Below, in pieces: positions 2,780 to 64,000 of a DNA stretch of 64,000 nt. The position numbers and the translations under genes are program-made. The stretch is from an uncultured Lachnospiraceae bacterium. Its GTDB lineage: Bacteria; Bacillota; Clostridia; Oscillospirales; CAG-272. The DNA lies in contig CAZXAU010000005.1 in assembly GCA_964638675.1 (NCBI GenBank), positions 69,313 through 133,312 of the forward strand, read 5' to 3'. The first letter of the stretch is position 1. The number at the start of each line of letters is the position of its first letter. Under the pieces are notes generated by a model that was not told the DNA's origin, searched no databases, and saw only the letters and a list, made by a program, of their open reading frames with translations.

Positions 2780-3658
2780 TTAATCTTCGTCTGCCTTGAT
2801 TCCGGTCTGATTCACAAAAGTTTCATATTCCCAGAACGGGAAGAGAAGCTCATAATCGTTGCCGTCTTTTTCAATCTCGAGAGAATAGTATGGAGCGAAA
2901 TGTACCGTTCCGTCTTTGGTTTCATATATTTTTCCGCTGTTTTTATACGAATCGGGAGATTCGTCTTTCATCCAGCAATCGACTTTGACTTTGGATCTGA
3001 TCTTATGAAGCGCCTTGACCTGTGAGAGTGGGATATCATATCTTTCAGTATTAAAACACAGGCATATTTTACTGTCTTCAATAAAAAAATCTGCTGACAA
3101 AATTGCATAATCGAATAGTTTTTTATGTGTGACCTTCATCTCGCCGTTTTTGATCTCATAGGCGAGGGACAATATATCAAACTCGACCGTTTTTCCGGGT
3201 GTTACTCCAAGCTGGGAGAGAGAGAATGTTTTTATGTTTTCAAGTTTTCTGTCAAGCTCAAGCTTTTCATCACTTTTCAGGAAGCTTTTCTCCTTTTTCA
3301 GTAAGAGGGCGAAGGATGCTATACCTGCAAATGCAAGAACTGCCGCAGCTATGAAAGCTACCGGAGCTTTTTGAAATGCTTCGCCGACAGTTATTTCTGA
3401 GCCTGATATTGCACGTATTGCTGCGGCGATAATAAGAAAGAGAGCAAAGCCGCAGAACATTACAATACCTTTCAGCACTGAAATCGGTTTTGTAAGCTTT
3501 TTCATCTGAGCAAGCAGCTCGTCGGCTGACTTATCAATATAATCTTCGGTTTCTTTATCTACACGTGCGGTTATGAAAGCCTCTCCGTCTGATACGCCTT
3601 CTTCCTGATTCAGTGTAAAGTCGGTTGCAAAAATATTTTTAGCCATAGTTATGTCCAT
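2780..3658 (-). CDS. hypothetical membrane protein (2 TM)
   Basis: The ORF 2780..3754 was trimmed because its first 32 codons lie inside repeat R1-A. The start is ATG 3658 or the in-frame ATG 3646. Confidence 0.6.
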   Translation of the reverse strand: MDITMAKNIFATDFTLNQEEGVSDGEAFITARVDKETEDYIDKSADELLAQMKKLTKPISVLKGIVMFCGFALFLIIAAAIRAISGSEITVGEAFQKAPVAFIAAAVLAFAGIASFALLLKKEKSFLKSDEKLELDRKLENIKTFSLSQLGVTPGKTVEFDILSLAYEIKNGEMKVTHKKLFDYAILSADFFIEDSKICLCFNTERYDIPLSQVKALHKIRSKVKVDCWMKDESPDSYKNSGKIYETKDGTVHFAPYYSLEIEKDGNDYELLFPFWEYETFVNQTGIKADED

Positions 3659-3779
3659 TGCTTTCGCAATGCGAAAGCTTCCTTTCTTTCCGGAATTGGG
3701 GCTGGTTTTGCAACGCCAAATCTCCGCCGTGTAAATGGCAAAGCCACAAAACACTGTCTAAAAAATATATTTTTCAGAC
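3656..3779 (-). repeat. R1 structured repeat, copy A
   Basis: Shares GTCTGAAAA-hairpin / GTTTTGTGGCTTT / GATTTGGCGTTGCAAAACCAGCCCCAATTCC / AGAAAGGAAGCTTTCGC-NNN-GCGAAAGCAATGG with the copies at 9552, 37273, 49215 and 63725. Confidence 0.85.
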
Positions 3780-3872
3780 TTTATATCCCCGTTTTATTTT
3801 TATGTTGACAGGACGTGTGATTTGTTGTAAAATGTTATTATAATAGATCATATTGAACGGAATGGATGTAAA

Positions 3873-8162: not shown

Positions 8163-9554
8163 TTATTTAAGTTCTACAAGACTTGCAGCTGCGATAGACT
8201 GACCGACTCTGCGAAGCATTTCGCTCGGAAGCTCTACACTTACCTGATACTGAGGATAATCTTTTGCAAGAACCTCACGGCAGGTATCAAGCAAGAGGTC
8301 TCCGCCCTTTCCGGATGTAACTCTTCCCATAAGGATGAGGTGCTTGATCTCGTAGAAGTGGGCGTATGTACCGATTGCATGAGCGAGGTAAGATCCGATC
8401 GATGCAAATATCGAGAGGGCATTCTCGTCTCCTTCATTTGCAAGCTTCTGTGCAATTTTGAGCTTTTCAGCAGGTGTAAGTGATTCATCGATCTCAATTC
8501 CTGCTCTAGGTGCAAGACGTATAACGGCATCCTGCGAGAGATACTGCGTGCCGACTCCTATATCGCCTGACCACGGGTCTGCTGAAGCGCCAGGATTCAT
8601 ATCGATAGGAGCAAAAGCAAGCTCATTGAGCATACCGGTGATGTTACCGCTTTCATCTACATATCCGACAGCTTCACTTGTGCCCATTGCAAGTCCCATG
8701 ACCTTGTTGTCCTTGAGATCCATTGCGCCTGCAAGTGCGGTTACGTCTCCGTCATTTGCCACTTCAAAGGGAATGTCTTTTCCGACTGCTGCACATGCAT
8801 TGAGATATATATCCTTTACCTTTGCTTCAAAATCCTCGGGTGATACCGCCTTGAAGAGAGAAGCGAGCATTGTACGGTTATTTACATATATTCCTGCCGA
8901 TGAAATTCCGATAGCATCGACTCTCGGCATCTTCTCTTTTGCCTTGTTCATTGCCATAACGATGTTTTCGAGGTGATAATCGGGGTTCGTGTTGACCTTG
9001 GGAAGCCATACGATCTCTTCGGAATAAATTACTTCTCCGTTGACAACGGCAGAGACCTTCATATCGCTTCCGCCGGCATCAAAACCGATCCTGCAACCGT
9101 CTACAAATCCTCCGACAGACTTCGGAGCGGATTTCGCCGCCGGTCTTTCTTCGTAGGTTGTATTGATTATTTCAAAATCCGATTCATAGACGTTCGACAT
9201 TGTCTTTACATCGAAATCCTGTCTGCCGCCGATCTTGTAAAGCTCCTTGATGCCTTCATAAATTTTTGTGTTTCCGCAGATGACGACCTTGAATCCGCCT
9301 GATGCCCAGAGCATGAATTTTACAATACGCTCAACATAATTAAGATCGTTTTCATAGCTCTCTTCGTTTCCGACGATCTTTGTTTCAAAGACGCTGACAT
9401 TTTCATTTTCACGGTAAACCGCTATTGCAATTTTCTCATTTGCAATTTTTTCGTAAGCGTCGATATAGGCACCCATAGGGATAAACTCCGGCTCAAGAAC
9501 CGGCTTGCAATTGAATTCTGCTTTGATATCGTTGACTTTCATTTTTTTGACCAT
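8163..9554 (-). CDS. ROK-family (sugar kinase-like) protein with about 150-aa N-terminal extension
   Basis: ATPase motifs GFDAGGSDMKVS, ANDGDVTALAG and GLAMGTSEAVG. Either ATG 9554 (inside R1-B) or the in-frame ATG 9542 could be the start. Confidence 0.7.
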   Translation of the reverse strand: MVKKMKVNDIKAEFNCKPVLEPEFIPMGAYIDAYEKIANEKIAIAVYRENENVSVFETKIVGNEESYENDLNYVERIVKFMLWASGGFKVVICGNTKIYEGIKELYKIGGRQDFDVKTMSNVYESDFEIINTTYEERPAAKSAPKSVGGFVDGCRIGFDAGGSDMKVSAVVNGEVIYSEEIVWLPKVNTNPDYHLENIVMAMNKAKEKMPRVDAIGISSAGIYVNNRTMLASLFKAVSPEDFEAKVKDIYLNACAAVGKDIPFEVANDGDVTALAGAMDLKDNKVMGLAMGTSEAVGYVDESGNITGMLNELAFAPIDMNPGASADPWSGDIGVGTQYLSQDAVIRLAPRAGIEIDESLTPAEKLKIAQKLANEGDENALSIFASIGSYLAHAIGTYAHFYEIKHLILMGRVTSGKGGDLLLDTCREVLAKDYPQYQVSVELPSEMLRRVGQSIAAASLVELK

Positions 9555-9680
9555 GGCTTTCGCATTGCGAAAGCTTCCTTTCTTGTCTTGCGGAATTGGG
9601 GCTGGTTTTGCGGAGCAAAATCGCTGTTACTCTAACGGCGAAAGCCACAAAACGCCGTTTGAAAGATTTATCTTTCAAAC
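9552..9680 (-). repeat. R1 structured repeat, copy B
   Basis: See R1-A. This copy has the H1 variant GTTTGAAAGA/TCTTTCAAAC. Confidence 0.85.
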
Positions 9681-9789
9681 TTTTGTCCTTCCCGATAATA
9701 CAATTTTTTACCCCTGCATTATACAACAAAACTATCCTTTTTTCAATACCCAAAGTAAAAAAATCAGTGCATATCTGTAATTATTTGTT

Positions 9790-15304: not shown

Positions 15305-15380
15305 CTGGGTGTGGCGCAGTTGGGAGCGCGCTACCTTGGGGTGGTAGAGGCCGCTGGTTCAAGTCCAGTCACTCAGACCA
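15305..15380 (+). tRNA. tRNA-Pro (anticodon GGG), CCA encoded
   Basis: A hand-folded cloverleaf fits: acceptor CTGGGTG/CACTCAG, D stem GCGC/GCGC, anticodon stem CTACC/GGTAG with loop TTGGGGT, T stem GCTGG/CCAGT with loop TTCAAGT. A TTGACT-17-TATAAT promoter lies at 15240-15268. Confidence 0.9.
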
Positions 15381-37228: not shown

Positions 37229-37272
37229 CCTGTTTTCGGATGTAAAATCGAAAAGTTAATTAAGGAGAGAAA

Positions 37273-37416
37273 GTTTGAAAGATAAATCTTTCAAACAGCG
37301 TTTTGTGGCTTTTACCGCCGAAACGAGCCGATTCTTTTCGAATCGGAGGTGATTTTGCTCCGCAAAACCAGCCACAATTACGTAAGAAAGGAAGCTTTCG
37401 CAAAGCGAAAGCCATG
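37273..37416 (+). repeat. R1 structured repeat, copy D (longest; extra CCGATT/AATCGG hairpin)
   Basis: See R1-A. It ends in ATG 37414, which opens a 5-codon uORF overlapping ATG 37428. Confidence 0.85.
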
Positions 37417-37427
37417 GTAATAAAAAA

Positions 37428-38390
37428 ATGACTTTAGATTCTATTCTCGTTTTGTTACAGAATACGTTAGAGCTTGGGCTTATAAGCTCGCTGACTGTCC
37501 TCGCTCTTTTTCTCAGCTATTCGATGCTGAACCTCTGCGATCTGTCGACAGACGGTTGTTATACACTCGGTGCGGCGGTAGGAGCTGTAGTTGCAATGGC
37601 AGGTCATCCCTATCTTGCGATCGTTGCGGCGATGGGAGCAGGAGTTACTTCTGGATTTATCACGGCTTTTCTTCAGACGAGGATGGGAGTGGACAGTCTG
37701 CTTTCGGGAATTATAGTCAATACGGCACTGTATTCGATAGTGATCCTGATAATGAGTGGAAAATCAGATCTCAATATGTTCAGGACAGAAACGATATTCA
37801 CGAGACTGAAGGCGCTTCTTGCCGGAACATTTCTCGAAAAATATTATGTTCTGATCATAGCGATCGTTGCAGTAGTTCTTGTTGTCATATTCCTCACGAT
37901 CTTTCTGCGGACAAAATTGGGCCTTGCGATCAGAGCAACCGGAAACAATCCGAGTATGGCACGCTCGTCATCGATAAATCCTATATTCACAACGACTGTC
38001 GGTCTTTGTATTGCCGGCTCGCTTACCGCTCTTTCGGGCTGTCTTTTCGCTCAGTCTGATAAATCGGTCAACGTCAATCTCGGCTCGGGAATTCTGACTG
38101 TTGCACTTGCATCTCTCCTTATCGGAAATGCATTCACATCCAAGCATAAGATTTTTGTACGGGCGTTGGGCTCGGTACTCGGTGCATTTATTTTCAGACT
38201 TGTATACATGATAGCGCTTCGCTTCAACATGCCTGCAACAATGCTCAAGCTTGTGTCGTCGGTGATCGTGGTAATTGCGGTTTCCGCACCTTATCTCAAG
38301 AAGCAATTCCCGATGTGGAAACGCAGACTGACGCATAATAAACAAATGAAAAAAATCAGGAAGGACGGTGGCGACATATGCTCAGAATAG
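37428..38390 (+). CDS. ABC transporter permease (COG4120 type)
   Basis: Multi-TM protein adjacent to its ATPase, with a 13-nt overlap. Confidence 0.85.
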   Translation: MTLDSILVLLQNTLELGLISSLTVLALFLSYSMLNLCDLSTDGCYTLGAAVGAVVAMAGHPYLAIVAAMGAGVTSGFITAFLQTRMGVDSLLSGIIVNTALYSIVILIMSGKSDLNMFRTETIFTRLKALLAGTFLEKYYVLIIAIVAVVLVVIFLTIFLRTKLGLAIRATGNNPSMARSSSINPIFTTTVGLCIAGSLTALSGCLFAQSDKSVNVNLGSGILTVALASLLIGNAFTSKHKIFVRALGSVLGAFIFRLVYMIALRFNMPATMLKLVSSVIVVIAVSAPYLKKQFPMWKRRLTHNKQMKKIRKDGGDICSE

Positions 38391-47988: not shown

Positions 47989-49203
47989 TTATGTGCGGTA
48001 GTCGCCGTTGATCTTGACATAGTCATATGTCAGATCGCAACCCCATGCCATTGCATTTGCTTTTCCGTCTCCGAGTGTGATGATTATTTCGATCTCTTTT
48101 TCAAGGAGGATCTCTTTGGCTTTCTCTTCCGAAAAATCAACTCCTGCACCGTTTTGACATACGGTTATTTCGCCCTTGGGGCTTTTGAATGTCACGCCTA
48201 TTTTGCTGACATCGACATCCGCTCCGCTGTATCCTATGGCACAGAGGACTCGTCCCCAGTTGGCGTCCGCACCGAACATTGCCGCTTTGAATAGCGAAGA
48301 GCAGATCACGCTCTTGGCAACGATCTTCGCATTTTTATCGTCCTTAGCTCCGTATACCGAGCATTCGAGAGTTTTTGTTGCACCCTCTCCGTCGCCTGCA
48401 ATCATTTTGCAGAGTGCTACTGTAACGGTATTGAGAGCTTTCATAAATTCTGCAAAGCTTTCGCCTTCGCATGTGATCTCATTATTTCCTGCCATTCCGT
48501 TTGCAAGCACCGTTACCATATCATTTGTTGATGTATCGCCGTCTACGCTTACCATATTGAATGTATTTGCAATATCGCTTGACAGTGCTTTCTGAAGCAT
48601 CTGAGATGAGATTGCAGCATCTGTTGTGATGAAAACGAGCATTGTTGCCATGTTGGGGTGGATCATTCCGCTTCCTTTGGCGATTCCTCCGATATGGCAG
48701 GTCTTTCCGTCAAGCGTGAATTCGACTGCTACCGATTTTTTTATTGTATCGGTCGTCATGATTCCCTCGTTTGCATCCTCGCTTCCGCTTTCCGAAAGTG
48801 ATGAGACAAGCCCGTCAAGCCCGTTCTTTATTGGTGTAATATCAAACACCTGACCGATAACGCCTGTGGATGCTACAACGATATCATCCTGTGCTATTCC
48901 GAGCTTTTCACTGACAAGACTGCACATCTCCTCGGCTACTTCTATTCCGTTTGCGTTGCATGTATTGGCGTTTCCGCTGTTGCAGATAACAGCCTGTGCC
49001 TTTCCGTTTGCTAAATGTTTCTTTGTAACTGTCAGCGGTGCTCCTTTTACAAGGTTTGTGGTATACACTGCCGCAGCATTTGTGACGCAGTCGCTCACTA
49101 TAAGGGCGAGATCTTTTTTTGTCTTGTTTTTGCGGATTCCGCAGTGTATTCCGCTCGCTTTAAAGCCTTTTGCGGCTGTAACGCCGCCCGATATTATTTT
49201 CAT
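47989..49203 (-). CDS. argJ: bifunctional ornithine acetyltransferase / N-acetylglutamate synthase
   Basis: GVTAAKGFKASG.., self-cleavage region ATMLVFITTDA. Start trimmed to ATG 49203 because the upstream codons lie in R1-C. Confidence 0.9.
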   Translation of the reverse strand: MKIISGGVTAAKGFKASGIHCGIRKNKTKKDLALIVSDCVTNAAAVYTTNLVKGAPLTVTKKHLANGKAQAVICNSGNANTCNANGIEVAEEMCSLVSEKLGIAQDDIVVASTGVIGQVFDITPIKNGLDGLVSSLSESGSEDANEGIMTTDTIKKSVAVEFTLDGKTCHIGGIAKGSGMIHPNMATMLVFITTDAAISSQMLQKALSSDIANTFNMVSVDGDTSTNDMVTVLANGMAGNNEITCEGESFAEFMKALNTVTVALCKMIAGDGEGATKTLECSVYGAKDDKNAKIVAKSVICSSLFKAAMFGADANWGRVLCAIGYSGADVDVSKIGVTFKSPKGEITVCQNGAGVDFSEEKAKEILLEKEIEIIITLGDGKANAMAWGCDLTYDYVKINGDYRT

Positions 49204-49214
49204 TTTATATATTC

Positions 49215-49338
49215 CATGGCTTTCGCATTGCGAAAGCTTCCTTTCTATGTGGAATTGGGGCTGGTTTTGCAGTGCAAAATCGCCGCCGCATCGGTGGCGA
49301 AAGCCACAAAACACTGTCTGAAAATGTATTTTTCAGAC
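49215..49338 (-). repeat. R1 structured repeat, copy C
   Basis: See R1-A. It ends in ATG 49217, which opens the uORF MEYIK* overlapping the argJ ATG. Confidence 0.85.
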
Positions 49339-49356
49339 ATTTTGCCTTTCTTATTT

Positions 49357-50283
49357 TCATTCGGGGATATTCAGCCCCTCGCCCTCATTGCTGCCCATTA
49401 TGATATTCATATTCTGTATTGCAGCTCCCGAAGCCCCTTTGCCGAGGTTATCGAATCTTGATACCAATGTAATTCTGTCATCGTTGCCGAAAACCGAGAT
49501 CTCCATATCGTCTCTTCCGCTCATTTTTGAGCCCGAAAGGAATCCGCTTTCATCACTGTCCTCGACGAATCTGACTATTTTGGATGTATAATAGCTTTTG
49601 TAAATATCTTTTATGTTTTTAATACTGCAGCATATCTCTTCTTTTGCAAGCTGAACGACTACCTCCATACCTGAGTAGTATGAAGATACAACAGGTGAGA
49701 AAAGCGGCAAATATTCGAGCGAGCATATCTTTGCCATTTCGGGAAGGTGCTTATGTGCCTGTGTCAGTCCGTATGTTCTCGGTGCGATCAGCTCGTTTTT
49801 GCCCTCGCCCTCATATTCTGCGATCATCTTTTTTCCACCGCCTGAATATCCTGTGAGCGAAAAGCAATGCAATACTGACTTTTTATCTAAGATCTTATTC
49901 TCCACAAGCGGAGCGACAAGTGATACAAATCCGCTTGCATGACATCCCGGATTGGCAATTCGTTTGCTTTTCTCAATTTTCTCACGGTATCCCGACAGCT
50001 CCGGAAATCCGTATGCCCACGCATCATTTGTTCTGTGTGCCGTCGATGTATCGATAACCGCCGTATTGCTGTTTTCTATCATCCCGACCGCTTCGATTGC
50101 CGCCGCATCAGGCAGGCAGAGAAATGCGATATCGGCACTGTTCAGTGCATCTTTTCGTGCAGCCGGGTCTTTTCTCACGCTCTCTTCAAGCCTGATAAAT
50201 TCGATGTCTTTGCGGCTTGAAAGCCGTTCGTATATCCGAAGCCCGGTCGTTCCGGCGCTTCCGTCAACAAAAACCTTTGTCAT
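49357..50283 (-). CDS. argC: N-acetyl-gamma-glutamyl-phosphate reductase (short type)
   Basis: FVDGSAGTTG and NPGCHASG. The start ATG overlaps the argH stop (ATGA). Confidence 0.9.
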   Translation of the reverse strand: MTKVFVDGSAGTTGLRIYERLSSRKDIEFIRLEESVRKDPAARKDALNSADIAFLCLPDAAAIEAVGMIENSNTAVIDTSTAHRTNDAWAYGFPELSGYREKIEKSKRIANPGCHASGFVSLVAPLVENKILDKKSVLHCFSLTGYSGGGKKMIAEYEGEGKNELIAPRTYGLTQAHKHLPEMAKICSLEYLPLFSPVVSSYYSGMEVVVQLAKEEICCSIKNIKDIYKSYYTSKIVRFVEDSDESGFLSGSKMSGRDDMEISVFGNDDRITLVSRFDNLGKGASGAAIQNMNIIMGSNEGEGLNIPE

Positions 50284-63422: not shown

Positions 63423-63722
63423 ATGGAGAGCTTTACAAAAAATGTAAAAAGGGTTTCGACAACTAAAAGTGACGGCGAAAAACGAAAGGAAAAGCTGAAA
63501 AAGCTTGTTGGCATTTCTTCGGTCGCATCTGTCACGGGCAGAGGTAAGATTGAGCTTTGCGGTTGTCGGGGTATAATGACATACAAGGACGATCTGATAT
63601 CGGTTCGTCTTTGTGACGGTGTCATAAAAATAATCGGTTCCTCTCTCTGTCTTTGCAATTTTTTCGGAGGCAGAATGATCATTCGCGGTAAAATAGAGAG
63701 TATTTCGTTTTGTGACAGGTGA
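63423..63722 (+). CDS. yqfC: YabP/YqfC-family sporulation protein
   Basis: Beta-rich GRGKIELCGCRGIMTYKDDLISVRL..IIGSSL..IIRGKIESISF pattern, followed by a yqfD-like gene. Confidence 0.75.
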   Translation: MESFTKNVKRVSTTKSDGEKRKEKLKKLVGISSVASVTGRGKIELCGCRGIMTYKDDLISVRLCDGVIKIIGSSLCLCNFFGGRMIIRGKIESISFCDR

Positions 63723-63724
63723 TA

Positions 63725-63845
63725 GTCTGAAAAAAATTCAGACGCCGTTTTGTGACTTTCGCCGCCTGAAAGGCAGCGATTTTGCTTCGCAAAACCAGCC
63801 CCAACTCCGGGGAGAAAGGAAGCTTTCGCACAAGCGAAAGCAATG
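63725..63845 (+). repeat. R1 structured repeat, copy E
   Basis: It fills the whole yqfC-yqfD spacer, starting 3 nt after the yqfC stop and ending in ATG 63843. Confidence 0.85.
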
Positions 63846-64000
63846 GTCATACTTATGCTTTTTTTTAATTATTTTATCGGTGTTGATAGATTGAAAATAT
63901 ACGGAAAGAGCGATAAACTGCTTAATCTTCTTGAGCTGAATTCTGTTGAATACGATGATCTTGAAACATGTGATCAATATATTGTGTTGTCGTGTGCATC
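63843..64000 (+). CDS. yqfD: sporulation protein YqfD-like, 3'-truncated by the window edge
   Basis: Open frame MVILMLFFNYFIGVDRLKIYGKSDKLLNLLELNSVEYDDLE.. runs to the window end. The alternative start is ATG 63855. Called by position after yqfC. Confidence 0.5.
   Translation, partial: MVILMLFFNYFIGVDRLKIYGKSDKLLNLLELNSVEYDDLETCDQYIVLSCA

Follow-up and report, generated by a model that had tools for sequence, protein, structure and literature searches.

A structured interspersed repeat inserted just upstream of start codons in gut Clostridia, with a putative translation initiation region of its own

Between argC and argJ in the window (the whole 64-kb stretch of DNA analysed here) lies a copy of R1, a repeat of ~130 bases that recurs upstream of other genes, and its position raises the question of how it came to stand between a gene and that gene's own Shine-Dalgarno (SD) sequence and how translation could begin downstream of it. 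We favour, with moderate confidence, the explanation that R1 is a small mobile non-coding interspersed element, and that it puts a translation initiation region (TIR) of its own in place of the gene's, one resembling the split TIR of phage T4 genes 25 and 38. R1 occurs in dozens of species of gut Clostridia (Ca. Flemingiibacterium, CAG-272 and Oscillospiraceae-type MAGs).

Copies, boundaries and fold of R1

All five copies that a sequence-only reading had placed in the window were recovered at the same places and on the same strands (nhmmer E = 1e-47 to 1e-51; covariance-model scores 120-146 bits, n = 5), and nhmmer found no additional or partial copies there. Copy c1 (3647-3779, minus strand; 124.9 bits) lies upstream of a 288-aa gene (ATG 3644-3646; host SD flank 3780-3793), c2 (9543-9680, minus strand; 145.7 bits) in the 5' UTR of a ROK kinase gene (ATG 9540-9542; host SD flank 9681-9694), c3 (37273-37427, plus strand; 139.8 bits), whose helix P3 contains an extra nested hairpin, upstream of an ABC permease gene (ATG 37428-37430; host SD flank 37259-37272), and c5 (63725-63854, plus strand; 120.4 bits; host SD flank 63711-63724) upstream of a gene starting at 63855, which we take, following its earlier naming, to be yqfD. 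Copy c4, the subject of this report (49204-49338, minus strand; covariance-model match 49201-49357, 135.9 bits), is the whole insert at the argC/argJ junction, from helix H1 through the 3' tail. Five of the ~58 genes in the window thus carry R1 upstream, on both DNA strands within 64 kb and with orientation tied to the gene.

Comparison of the copies establishes the boundaries of R1 and a fold of five helices, namely H1, a long-range helix P2 around P3 and P4, and then P5. In c4, read along the minus strand, the argC stop TGA (49357-49359) and the host flank with the original argJ SD (AAGAAAGGCAAAAT, 49339-49352) are followed by H1 (GTCTGAAAA-ATACA-TTTTCAGAC, 49316-49338), the 5' strand of P2 (GTG-TT-TTGTGGCT, 49302-49314), the variable-sequence hairpin P3 (49281-49301), the hairpin P4 (ATTTTGC-ACT-GCAAAAC, 49264-49280) and the 3' strand of P2 (AGCCCCAA-TTC-CAC, 49249-49262), the partner of 49302-49314. 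Next come SD2, a putative element-borne Shine-Dalgarno sequence (AGAAAGGAAG, 49237-49246) that is invariant among copies, the hairpin P5 (GCTTTCGC-AAT-GCGAAAGC, 49219-49237), which fills the interval between SD2 and the start codon and is replaced by other stems or missing in non-ascertained copies, and the 3' tail (CATGGAATATATAAA, 49204-49218; family consensus nATGGTCATAA+NN), which includes an ATG of the element itself at 49215-49217. The host argJ start codon occupies 49201-49203, and the ORF from this ATG matches Pfam ArgJ (E = 2.5e-147). The motifs listed in the sequence-only reading are all present (a two-form, compensating H1, GYGTTTTGTGRCTTTCGCC, a variable hairpin, GATTTTGC-NNN-GCAAAACCAGCCMCAAYTCC, AGAAAGGAAG, an 8-bp hairpin and MATGG), and to these the comparison adds the long-range helix TTGTGGCT/AGCCNCAA (P2), which closes a three-way junction, a non-repeated, SD-like tract that precedes H1 by 2-7 nt in each window copy, and ~7 nt of conserved sequence beyond MATGG, up to ...ATGGTCATAA, after which 2 variable host nt precede the gene ATG.

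That this structure is under selection, as had been argued from the window copies, is borne out by covariation, with 89% of cells paired against 34-47% in controls and double changes at 35 of 43 pairs. H1 has double changes at 9/9 pairs, with 91% of cells paired (65 copies), and P2 at 9/12; P3 covaries at 8/8 pairs (91% of cells paired) and P4 at 6/6 (95%). P5 is paired in all copies that have it and takes at least six different stem sequences, with unrelated stems in L017, L074, L063 and L038. Mismatches in the internal loop of P2 (U.C and U.U) are conserved in 35-48 of 65 copies, and the strands of the three-way junction are only 1-3 nt long, without a large invariant core. The structure was built by hand and with a covariance model; plain RNAalifold on a MAFFT alignment gave P3 and P5 only. 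Nearly all copies were recruited by exact identity to the 3' module, and this recruitment biases every statement made here on that module.

Module content is variable. L016 has three tandem H1 units, L040 lacks P2-P3, L007 and L067 consist of H1 and the 3' module only, ~40 copies are the 3' module alone, with such copies found behind promoters, and L004 lacks the H1 that L078 has at the same locus, an H1 deletion. Between genomes, stems are spared in pairs of copies (0.039 vs 0.138), with compensation of up to 57-64%; in recent pairs within a genome they are not spared (0.068 vs 0.053), and stem breaks in recent copies are uncompensated in 62 cases and compensated in 21. Judged from these substitutions, the selection pattern appears to be like that of a master-copy family, and the 5' domain (H1 plus the P2/P3/P4 three-way junction) would be retained by selection on propagating element lineages, in which it could serve mobility or regulation.

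An alternative interpretation is that R1 is a cis-regulatory RNA, with a junction that has a protein or small-molecule ligand, or senses temperature or a global signal, and so gates SD2, and that it spreads by way of common translational control, with a benefit to the host for each copy. A multi-helix fold with conserved helix sequences and P2 mismatches, and stems spared between genomes, would be expected of such an RNA, and a GUUUUG:CAAAAC pairing that had been proposed as one of two mutually exclusive folds is possible in principle, being complementary in 88% of cells. This pairing did not survive scrutiny, since its covariation score of 0.044 equals the shuffled mean and it shows one double change, whereas the nested P2 and P4 do covary; indeed no alternative pairing covaries. 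We consider regulation quite unlikely also because the downstream genes appear, by their Pfam assignments, to be functionally incoherent (151 families in 90 genes, at most four genes per family), because SD2 is predicted to be open rather than sequestered (P(unpaired) 0.58 vs 0.44 for ordinary SDs), and because the short junction strands, the excess of uncompensated stem breaks in recent copies and the whole or partial loss of the 5' domain in many working copies (the 3'-module-only copies behind promoters; L004 vs L078) all argue against it. R1 accordingly has neither the coherent gene set nor the covarying exclusive pairings of riboswitches and ligand-sensing leaders, and the earlier rejection of a metabolite riboswitch, made from the unrelated genes of the window, stands.

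Insertion between the Shine-Dalgarno sequence and the start codon

At the ROK kinase gene, the orthologue L176 (90% amino-acid identity, from the window's own lineage) has an empty site that reads ...GGGAAGGACAAAAA/ATGAAAGTC, and the filled site in the window reads ...GGGAAGGACAAAA, the element and AAAAAA/ATGAAAGTC, with flanks near-identical to those of L176; five further orthologues also lack the element. All 80 of 80 orthologous ArgJ loci are empty at the argJ junction, and the host flank of c4 matches the empty-site initiation region of one of them, L116 (TAAGAAAGGCAAATTTATTT/ATG), whose SD agrees with that left flank. Further filled and empty pairs are L058 vs L007, L021 vs L036 and L059 vs L016. 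These orthologous junctions demonstrate that R1 arrived at such sites by insertion, and the insertion point lies between the gene's pre-existing SD and its ATG, ~2 nt from the ATG, so that the protein is unchanged. One genome has eight near-identical copies before different genes, with sharp ends (A)GT...TCATAA and then 2 variable nt and the ATG, which by their likeness are evidently the product of recent spread. Filled and empty orthologous sites and near-identical copies within a genome thus uphold the suggestion, made from the window, of a mobile or propagated translation-initiation cassette.

Some orthologous genes carry R1 in two species (L055 and L071, L004 and L078), which is what an ancient leader, vertically inherited, lost in some lineages and not mobile, would leave. 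Such a leader is hardly credible and is already contradicted, because R1 is missing from the nearest orthologues of two of the window's genes, because the L055 copy resembles L025 and not L071, likeness within the genome exceeding that between orthologues, and because adjacent genes exchange the carrier role between species (L059 vs L016, L007 vs L058).

The comparison with empty sites, which the sequence-only reading had proposed, also defines the ends of the element. Left flank and right end gave no signal of a target-site duplication (permutation p = 0.25-0.76), and a duplication between left flank and 3' tail was rejected on these grounds; the L176/window pair leaves an ambiguity of at most 1 nt, within an A-run. 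Inspection of the alignment revealed no terminal inverted repeats, the ends (A)GTCTGAAA... and ...ATGGTCATAA not being reverse complements. No fixed 4-5-nt target abuts either end; in the left flank the one preference is for A (71-85%), at two positions, to the right of the insert two variable nt precede the ATG, and the target context is an A-rich spacer only. Classical MITEs (for example IS630- or Tc1-derived) have both terminal inverted repeats and a target-site duplication, and several families of small interspersed repeats have inverted-repeat ends and TA duplications; R1 has none of these. Clustering of the ORFs in ~8-kb flanks (~0.7 Mb) revealed no recurrent transposase or other partner gene. 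With no recurrent partner and only an A-rich spacer, the precision of insertion ~2 nt upstream of start codons is left unexplained by our model. Were selection the only force at work, neutral copies should remain in intergenic DNA; none was seen among the copies examined, which counts against selection as the sole explanation of position.

R1 might instead owe its fold to single-stranded DNA, as a non-autonomous derivative of an IS200/IS605 (HUH/Y1, 'peel-and-paste') or other hairpin-recognising transposon mobilised in trans, with its SD and tail serving only to make insertions at gene starts tolerable. In common with the palindrome-associated, non-autonomous derivatives of IS200/IS605, it lacks target-site duplications and inverted-repeat ends and has hairpins at or near both ends (H1 at the 5' end, P5 11 nt from the 3' end), sharp boundaries and apparently exact empty sites. 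The selection pattern of a master-copy family fits this origin too, as does the finding that G.U pairs are not commoner than A.C mismatches in R1 stems, so that constraint at the RNA level is not proven; as a test of the folded strand, or of RNA against DNA, these counts proved uninformative. However, we consider such a derivative unlikely because R1 has no conserved target tetra- or pentanucleotide at either end, because its orientation follows the gene on both strands within 64 kb, and because no recurrent Y1 or TnpB-like gene emerged from the ~0.7 Mb of flanks, as judged by clustering only, nor any R1 carrier from phage, plasmid and viral-contig collections. Its internal three-way junction and its SD also set it apart, and we know of no IS200/IS605-type element with a counterpart of the P2-P4 junction.

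A bolder reading, which we put forward tentatively, is that R1 may be the first element found to home to TIRs. Its machinery, protein- or RNA-guided, would recognise SD-spacer-AUG and insert ~2 nt upstream of the start, the host ribosome-binding site would be replaced by a split one, and the 5' domain would belong to an RNA class of novel function, such as a ribozyme or an insulator or regulator of translation, at up to ~8% of the genes in carrier genomes.

Translation initiation at filled sites

In the explanation that we favour, R1 has inserted in gene orientation into the SD-ATG spacer, ~2 nt upstream of the ATG and without target-site duplication, and displaces the host SD (SD1) ~130 nt from the start, so that the element would have to supply a replacement TIR. 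This would consist of SD2 (AGAAAGGAAG), single-stranded between P2 and P5, usually P5 itself, an 11-nt tail, 2 host nt and the host ATG, and folding of P5 would cut the SD2-AUG distance from ~34 to ~14 nt on the split-TIR principle of T4 genes 25 and 38.

The position of the downstream reading frames bears on this proposal. In 101 of 103 copies an ATG lying 10-16 nt past P5 opens an ORF of 60 aa or more, and in 64 of the 103 the distance is exactly 13 nt, in agreement with the single orientation relative to the gene that had been noted in the window. The same interval separates P5 from an ORF in 11 of 12 evaluable non-ascertained copies, and 66 of 66 matches to the 5' domain only are followed by a TIR. 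Judged by these frames, the ATG ~13 nt after P5 is established as the real start and the one that is used. The element's own ATG, to which the gene ATG stands at 12 nt in three window copies and 14 nt in two, appears dispensable: it is intact in only 46 of 64 copies of modal spacing, is separated from the gene ATG by an in-frame stop in five copies, and in c4 lies in a different frame from the argJ ATG. It was rejected, on these counts, both as the true start and as part of an obligatory coupled mini-ORF. The claim that the repeat always ends in an ATG therefore holds within the window and fails across the family, in which the element also continues past this point, and the idea that the hairpin serves the element's ATG gives way to a universal start ~13 nt after the hairpin.

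By sequence SD2 is a strong SD, with eight consecutive nt that agree with the complement of the canonical 3' end of 16S rRNA. Its GGA lies 33-34 nt from the ATG in linear sequence and ~14 nt from it with P5 folded, the latter being more than the usual optimum. From the fold model we infer that P5 would be a structural spacer and that SD2 and P5 together would drive translation of the downstream gene; the copies without P5 (L019 and L084) have the same tail and a spacing of 12 nt. The tail after P5 measures 11 nt and its ATGGTCATAA is conserved with no demonstrated reason for conservation, which counts against this explanation. In the T4 split TIRs, folding of a hairpin shortens the SD-AUG distance from 27 to 11 nt and from 22 to 5 nt (PMC3014915). 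R1 resembles T4 genes 25 and 38 in having a distant SD and start, more than 20 nt apart, and an intervening hairpin, conserved as structure, that would restore the distance, a role assigned to P5 by analogy. It differs in that the T4 split TIR is a single-locus feature of particular genes, whereas R1 is a repeated mobile cassette at many unrelated genes, with an extra 5' domain.

H1 would bury a TTG, CTG or GTG that lies at start-codon distance from the orphaned SD1; the CTG at H1 stem positions 3-5 of c4 has a predicted P(unpaired) of 0.03. The predicted structures thus suggest that H1 masks a pseudo-start. That a host SD precedes the element is borne out by the left flanks, 64% of which contain GGAG or GAGG (ordinary starts 40%, random 16-mers 9%), and by the 3-4 nt between SD1 and H1, which with 2 nt more give the ordinary spacing of ~6. 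In strength, SD1 tracts equal or exceed ordinary SDs instead of having decayed, which hints at a retained function that our model does not assign.

One such function would follow if R1 were a module of RNA processing or stability, in which RNase cleavage takes place within the element or ahead of it, SD1 and H1 act as a 5' stabiliser like STAB-SD, and cistrons are uncoupled. SD1 does stand at full strength directly before a stable hairpin, about one-third of full copies lie at most 30 nt after a co-directional gene, and insertion breaks an ancestral stop-SD-ATG coupling, as it necessarily does at argC-argJ. STAB-SD, the 5' stabiliser of Bacillus thuringiensis cryIIIA, likewise has an SD-like tract far upstream of the start that is used, beside RNA structure; unlike it, SD1 is the gene's former SD, left behind by insertion, and any stabilising role is only putative. 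We regard processing as highly unlikely because many copies lie in ordinary 5' UTRs behind promoters of their own and because no Rfam ribozyme or processing motif matches R1; the mRNA-processing option of the sequence-only reading finds no support here.

Other candidate roles were tried and set aside. A 'split SD', in which AGAAAGGA and GGTSAT would jointly pair with the 16S tail with P5 looped out, is unproven, the completing G being found in 3 of 64 copies and C in 44 of 64. Silencing of the host SD through pairing with the conserved GUUUUGUGGCUUUC was rejected, as the flanks actually present show no pairing advantage over swapped, shuffled or random flanks. A leader peptide read from the H1 TTG, CTG or GTG would use three frames (24, 23 and 12 copies) with inconsistent stops, spread over a range that begins 148 nt before the gene ATG and reaches 270 nt and more past it, and R1 therefore lacks the conserved short ORF of fixed frame and stop that characterises leader-peptide (uORF) attenuators.

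Relation to catalogued families and repeats

R1 matches no catalogued RNA family or described repeat, in line with the sequence-only reading, which had matched it to no known RNA family. A search of the whole window against Rfam 15 at the gathering threshold returned tRNA only, sensitive Rfam scans of c4 and c3 gave a best E of 0.6-0.9 (17 bits, against cut-offs of 39-80), and literature searches yielded no description of such an element. Its five-helix fold with abundant covariation is a candidate new Rfam family.

MIRU are tandem units of 46-101 bp whose small ORFs overlap neighbouring stop and start codons. With MIRU and putative mobile promoters, R1 has in common that repeats between or before genes, in gene orientation, carry expression signals for unrelated genes; R1 would provide a ribosome-binding site rather than a promoter, and no sigma-70-like promoter was noted inside it, without a systematic scan. 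Putative mobile promoters involve the reuse of sequence upstream of genes, with no defined fold or register (PMC3575422). BOX elements, together with RUP, SPRITE, ERIC and Correia, resemble R1 in being short, non-coding, multi-copy, modular and lineage-restricted, with stable structures when transcribed, and in R1, as in BOX, copies differ in which modules they contain and how many of each. Pneumococcal repeats keep no fixed start-codon register and no single orientation, and their enrichment lies elsewhere, for instance where two genes converge (PMC3049150), whereas R1 lies in gene orientation ~2 nt from the ATG in ~98% of copies.

If the favoured explanation is correct, mobile elements can persist by replacing a gene's ribosome-binding site with their own rather than by avoiding genes, which would offer a new, one-step route by which many unrelated genes could change in how efficiently they are translated, how they are coupled in operons and possibly how they are regulated. 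R1 would then be nature's equivalent of the insulated ribosome-binding-site parts engineered in synthetic biology. It would also pose a sharp mechanistic question, namely what measures out the 2 nt between insertion site and start codon. For annotation the consequence is direct: gene callers place starts at the element ATG and thereby add ~4 spurious N-terminal residues (MV[IK]x), an extension present in the NCBI model for the ROK kinase of the window.

Insertion between a Shine-Dalgarno sequence and its start codon

The five window copies of R1, a folded interspersed repeat of ~130 nt, lie at 3656-3779 (-), 9552-9680 (-), 37273-37416 (+), 49215-49338 (-) and 63725-63845 (+) (c1 to c5), with the positions and strands assigned by an earlier sequence-only reading, and can be aligned over about 125-145 nt. 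An HMM built from these copies recovered all five in the 64-kb window (E = 1e-47 to 1e-51), with no further or partial copies. In every full copy, a purine tract lies outside the repeat, 2-7 nt upstream of H1, the first helix. Of the left flanks of full copies, 64% contain GGAG or GAGG, 29% GGAGG and 2% no core, compared with 40%, 13% and 32% for 173 unambiguous ordinary starts at the same loci and 9%, 1% and 73% for random 16-mers. The modal distance from this host Shine-Dalgarno sequence (SD1) to H1 is 3-4 nt, which with 2 nt added equals the ordinary SD-to-ATG spacing of ~6 nt. Eight near-identical copies in JAZNKS, the genome of Ca. Flemingiibacterium SGB_1620, set the boundaries: they become identical at (A)GT|CTGAAA and remain so through ATGGTCATAA, after which come two variable nt and the ATG.

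Orthologous sites with and without the repeat establish that R1 is an insertion between the SD of a host gene and its start codon. At the ROK kinase gene, the empty site of L176, a locus from another genome (90% aa identity), reads TTGTATTATCGGGAAGGACAAAAA directly before ATGAAAGTCAAC, and the filled window site (c2) reads TTGTATTATCGGGAAGGACAAAA, the element (GTTTGAAAG...CCATGGTC) and AAAAAA before the same ATGAAAGTCAAC; five more orthologues, at 75-79% identity, are all empty. At the c4 site, between argC and argJ, the closest 80 ArgJ loci without exception (80/80) have a compact, empty stop-SD-ATG junction, and that of L116 (TAAGAAAGGCAAATTTATTT followed by ATG) matches the left flank of c4, AAGAAAGGCAAAAT. 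Other species provide further filled and empty comparisons (L058 versus L007, the latter with AGGAGGTAAAAA before ATG; L021 versus L036), and in L059 and L016 R1 sits on different neighbouring genes. The protein N-terminus is unaltered in every filled/empty comparison, the old host SD has not decayed at filled sites, and no target-site duplication was found around R1 copies. These sites directly support the main interpretation of the sequence-only reading, a propagated translation-initiation cassette; mRNA processing, which it had offered as an alternative, is not supported.

About one-third of full copies begin within 30 nt of the end of a co-directional gene, and the others have longer upstream regions. 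A promoter-like TTGAAA-17 nt-TATAAT site at about 9718-9746 (-), ~40 nt upstream of c2, is conserved in the empty L176, which places c2 within a 5' UTR and not between cistrons.

Distribution and fold of the repeat

A scan of one genome per species for the exact 3' pattern GAAAGGAAGCTTTCGC-N3-5-GCGAAAGC found matches in at least 95 stretches. Among the matches listed, hosts are dozens of uncultured gut Clostridia, including Ca. Flemingiibacterium and Firmicutes bacterium CAG:272, together with metagenome-assembled genomes labelled Oscillospiraceae, Eubacteriales or Clostridia from human, chicken, horse and ruminant guts. JAZNKS by itself carries at least 11 copies. No copy was found in 305 kb flanking the ArgJ genes of less closely related Clostridia, in IMG/VR viral contigs, or in PLSDB plasmids and INPHARED phages. 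No Rfam 15 family matched R1 in the window at the gathering threshold, where the sole match was a tRNA gene at 15305-15377 (+) (RF00005, 59 bits), and sensitive scans of two R1 copies gave chance-level matches only.

A five-helix model was written, turned into a covariance model and used to re-align 65 full-length matches. After H1, it comprises the long-range helix P2 (TTGTGGCT/AGCCNCAA plus three outer pairs), which the sequence-only reading had overlooked, enclosing P3, a hairpin that is the most variable part of R1 even between copies of one genome, and P4 (ATTTTGC/GCAAAAC), and then P5 (GCTTTCGC/GCGAAAGC). In this alignment, which had been fitted to the structure under test, standard pairs occupy 89.1% of cells (34-47% if partners are shifted by 1-3 columns), both partners have changed in 35 of 43 pairs, the score for covariation is 0.351 versus 0.05-0.075 in the shifted controls, and none of 500 shuffles reached any of the five measures. 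P5 is near-invariant in this set only because the exact-pattern scan demanded its sequence: copies found without that requirement have stems GACCTGC/GCAGGTC, GCCTTC/GAAGGC, GCTTCT/AGAAGC, GCTTTCA/TGAAAGC, GTCTTTGC/GCAAAGAC and GTTTTCGC/GCGAAAAC, and in two P5 is absent altogether. The alternative pairing of GTTTTG with CAAAAC, previously proposed, is complementary in 88% of cells, yet shows no covariation and is not supported. Since G.U (21 pairs) is no commoner than A.C mismatches (22 pairs), these data do not distinguish selection on an RNA fold from selection on single-stranded DNA.

The two copies lacking P5 (L019:2158-2299 and L084:6549-6690 (-)) form a diverged subfamily with a fully paired 11-bp P2 (GAAGTTTTGTG/CACAAAACTTC) that shares genomes with canonical copies. 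In c3, P3 is enlarged by an extra nested hairpin (37311-37351; GAGCCGATTCTTTTCGAATCGGAGG). On the strand antisense to R1, T-rich tracts complementary to the purine-rich SDs come after both P5 and H1 (c4, 49218-49238 and 49315-49339 (+)), and the two hairpins scored as intrinsic-terminator-like in a terminator scan; they could block antisense transcription or be a by-product.

Translation signals and register with gene starts

Insertion puts ~130 nt between the host SD and its start codon. R1 brings its own SD (SD2, AGAAAGGAAG) in the linker between P2 and P5, with eight contiguous matches to the complement of the canonical 16S 3' end, which may not be that of the hosts. Partition-function folding of 58 copies predicted a mean unpaired probability of 0.58 for SD2 versus 0.44 for ordinary SD regions, 0.37 for the gene ATG versus 0.43 for ordinary start codons, and 0.03 for the TTG, CTG or GTG in H1 at start-codon distance from the old SD. 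GGA and ATG are 33-34 nt apart in linear sequence, which folding of P5 would shorten to ~14 nt; relatives without P5 keep this tail, at 12 nt. This 3' module (with SD2 and P5) has the arrangement of the split initiation regions of phage T4 genes 25 and 38, where a hairpin shortens the distance from 27 to 11 nt and from 22 to 5 nt and its disruption lowers initiation (PMC3014915), the closest match for the putative working of the module. P5 covariation, the fixed tail length and the P5-less variants suggest that P5 would serve as a T4-like spacer bringing SD2 near the gene ATG.

Among the matches listed, 101 of the 103 3' modules have an ATG 10-16 nt past P5 (exactly 13 nt in 64) that opens an ORF of 60 aa or more (median 287). 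The intervening tail, with the consensus nATGGTCATAA plus two variable bases, lay outside the search pattern. Of 13 copies not ascertained through that pattern, 11 open an ORF of 111 aa or more at the aligned ATG, one runs off a contig end and one has decayed. A search of 1.05 Mb with the 5' domain only (H1 and P2/P3/P4) gave 66 matches, and after each of them come the 3' module and the start of a gene. The 90 downstream genes represent 151 Pfam families, the commonest in four genes. Of the 64 copies with modal spacing, only 46 preserve the ATG within the element, stressed by the sequence-only reading; in five copies an in-frame stop separates it from the gene ATG, and in c3 and c4 it is out of frame. 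It is thus not the obligatory start.

In the decayed copy (L060:313-407 (-)), P5 has a mismatch, the aligned ATG opens a 15-aa ORF only, and a fresh SD (GGGAGGGG) and ATG lie 20 nt downstream; its host may have re-evolved an initiation region. The public model of the ROK kinase gene (P0001, 463 aa, NCBI) begins at the element ATG (MVKK-MKVND...; 9540-9554 (-)), and in orthologues that lack R1 the protein begins with the second ATG (459 aa). Automated gene calling has probably added ~4 spurious residues to many genes carrying R1 in frame. Ordinary initiation regions of the clade often have GAAAGGA and an immediate ATG with the real ATG ~12 nt later (e.g. GAAAGGAATGATTGACAAGATG; L179:478-503, L180:478-503 and L181:480-503), so that the 3' module looks like such a region with an inserted hairpin. 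The tail ATGGTCATAA is conserved with weak three-base periodicity and is similar to GGTGATC, the 3' half of the complete anti-SD complement, but just 3 of 64 copies have the base needed for a perfect match.

Known elements, turnover and selection

R1 belongs with the small interspersed repeats and is unusual among them in its insertion into the SD-AUG spacer and its self-supplied translation signals; our literature search turned up no account of an element lodged between SD and start codon. It shares with pneumococcal BOX-type repeats a modular, structured, multi-copy nature, but the latter do not keep a fixed register to start codons (PMC3049150). With MIRUs and 'mobile promoters' (PMC3575422), the only common ground is the idea of reused expression signals. 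Like non-autonomous IS200/IS605-type elements, R1 has no duplication, no inverted ends and hairpins near its ends, but their fixed target sequence was absent when tested for at the R1 ends. Its flanks hold no recurrent mobilising gene, and no target motif beyond an A-rich spacer is visible at insertion sites. The point of insertion nevertheless varies by no more than ~1 nt, and neutral intergenic positions yielded no copies, a pattern hard to account for by random insertion followed by selection. There is a real chance, though less than even, that R1 represents a novel type of element, one homing to initiation regions and bearing a functional RNA domain that is itself new.

Parts of R1 also occur separately. 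The 3' module is found alone, for example right after good -35/-10 promoters in L003, L068 and L072; L040 lacks P2-P3; L007 and L067 consist of H1 and the 3' module. At one locus, shared by two metagenome-assembled genomes with downstream proteins 99.6% identical, L078:4178-4330 has H1 and L004:3323-3465 lacks exactly H1, with CG instead. At L016:7433-7640 (-), H1 (CTGAAAATAAATTTTCAGACCCG) stands three times in tandem ahead of a copy, which indicates that H1 can duplicate on its own.

Copies in the same genome are more alike than orthologous copies across species (L055 resembles L025, not L071). Stems are not spared in within-genome pairs of at least 90% identity, where the difference rate is 0.068 in stems versus 0.053 in unpaired positions, with 62 breaks versus 21 compensated changes; between-genome pairs of the same identity spare them (0.039 versus 0.138 unpaired), and compensation reaches 57-64% of stem changes where pairs are divergent. 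This is the pattern expected if selection keeps the fold in R1 lineages that are still propagating while single insertions drift.
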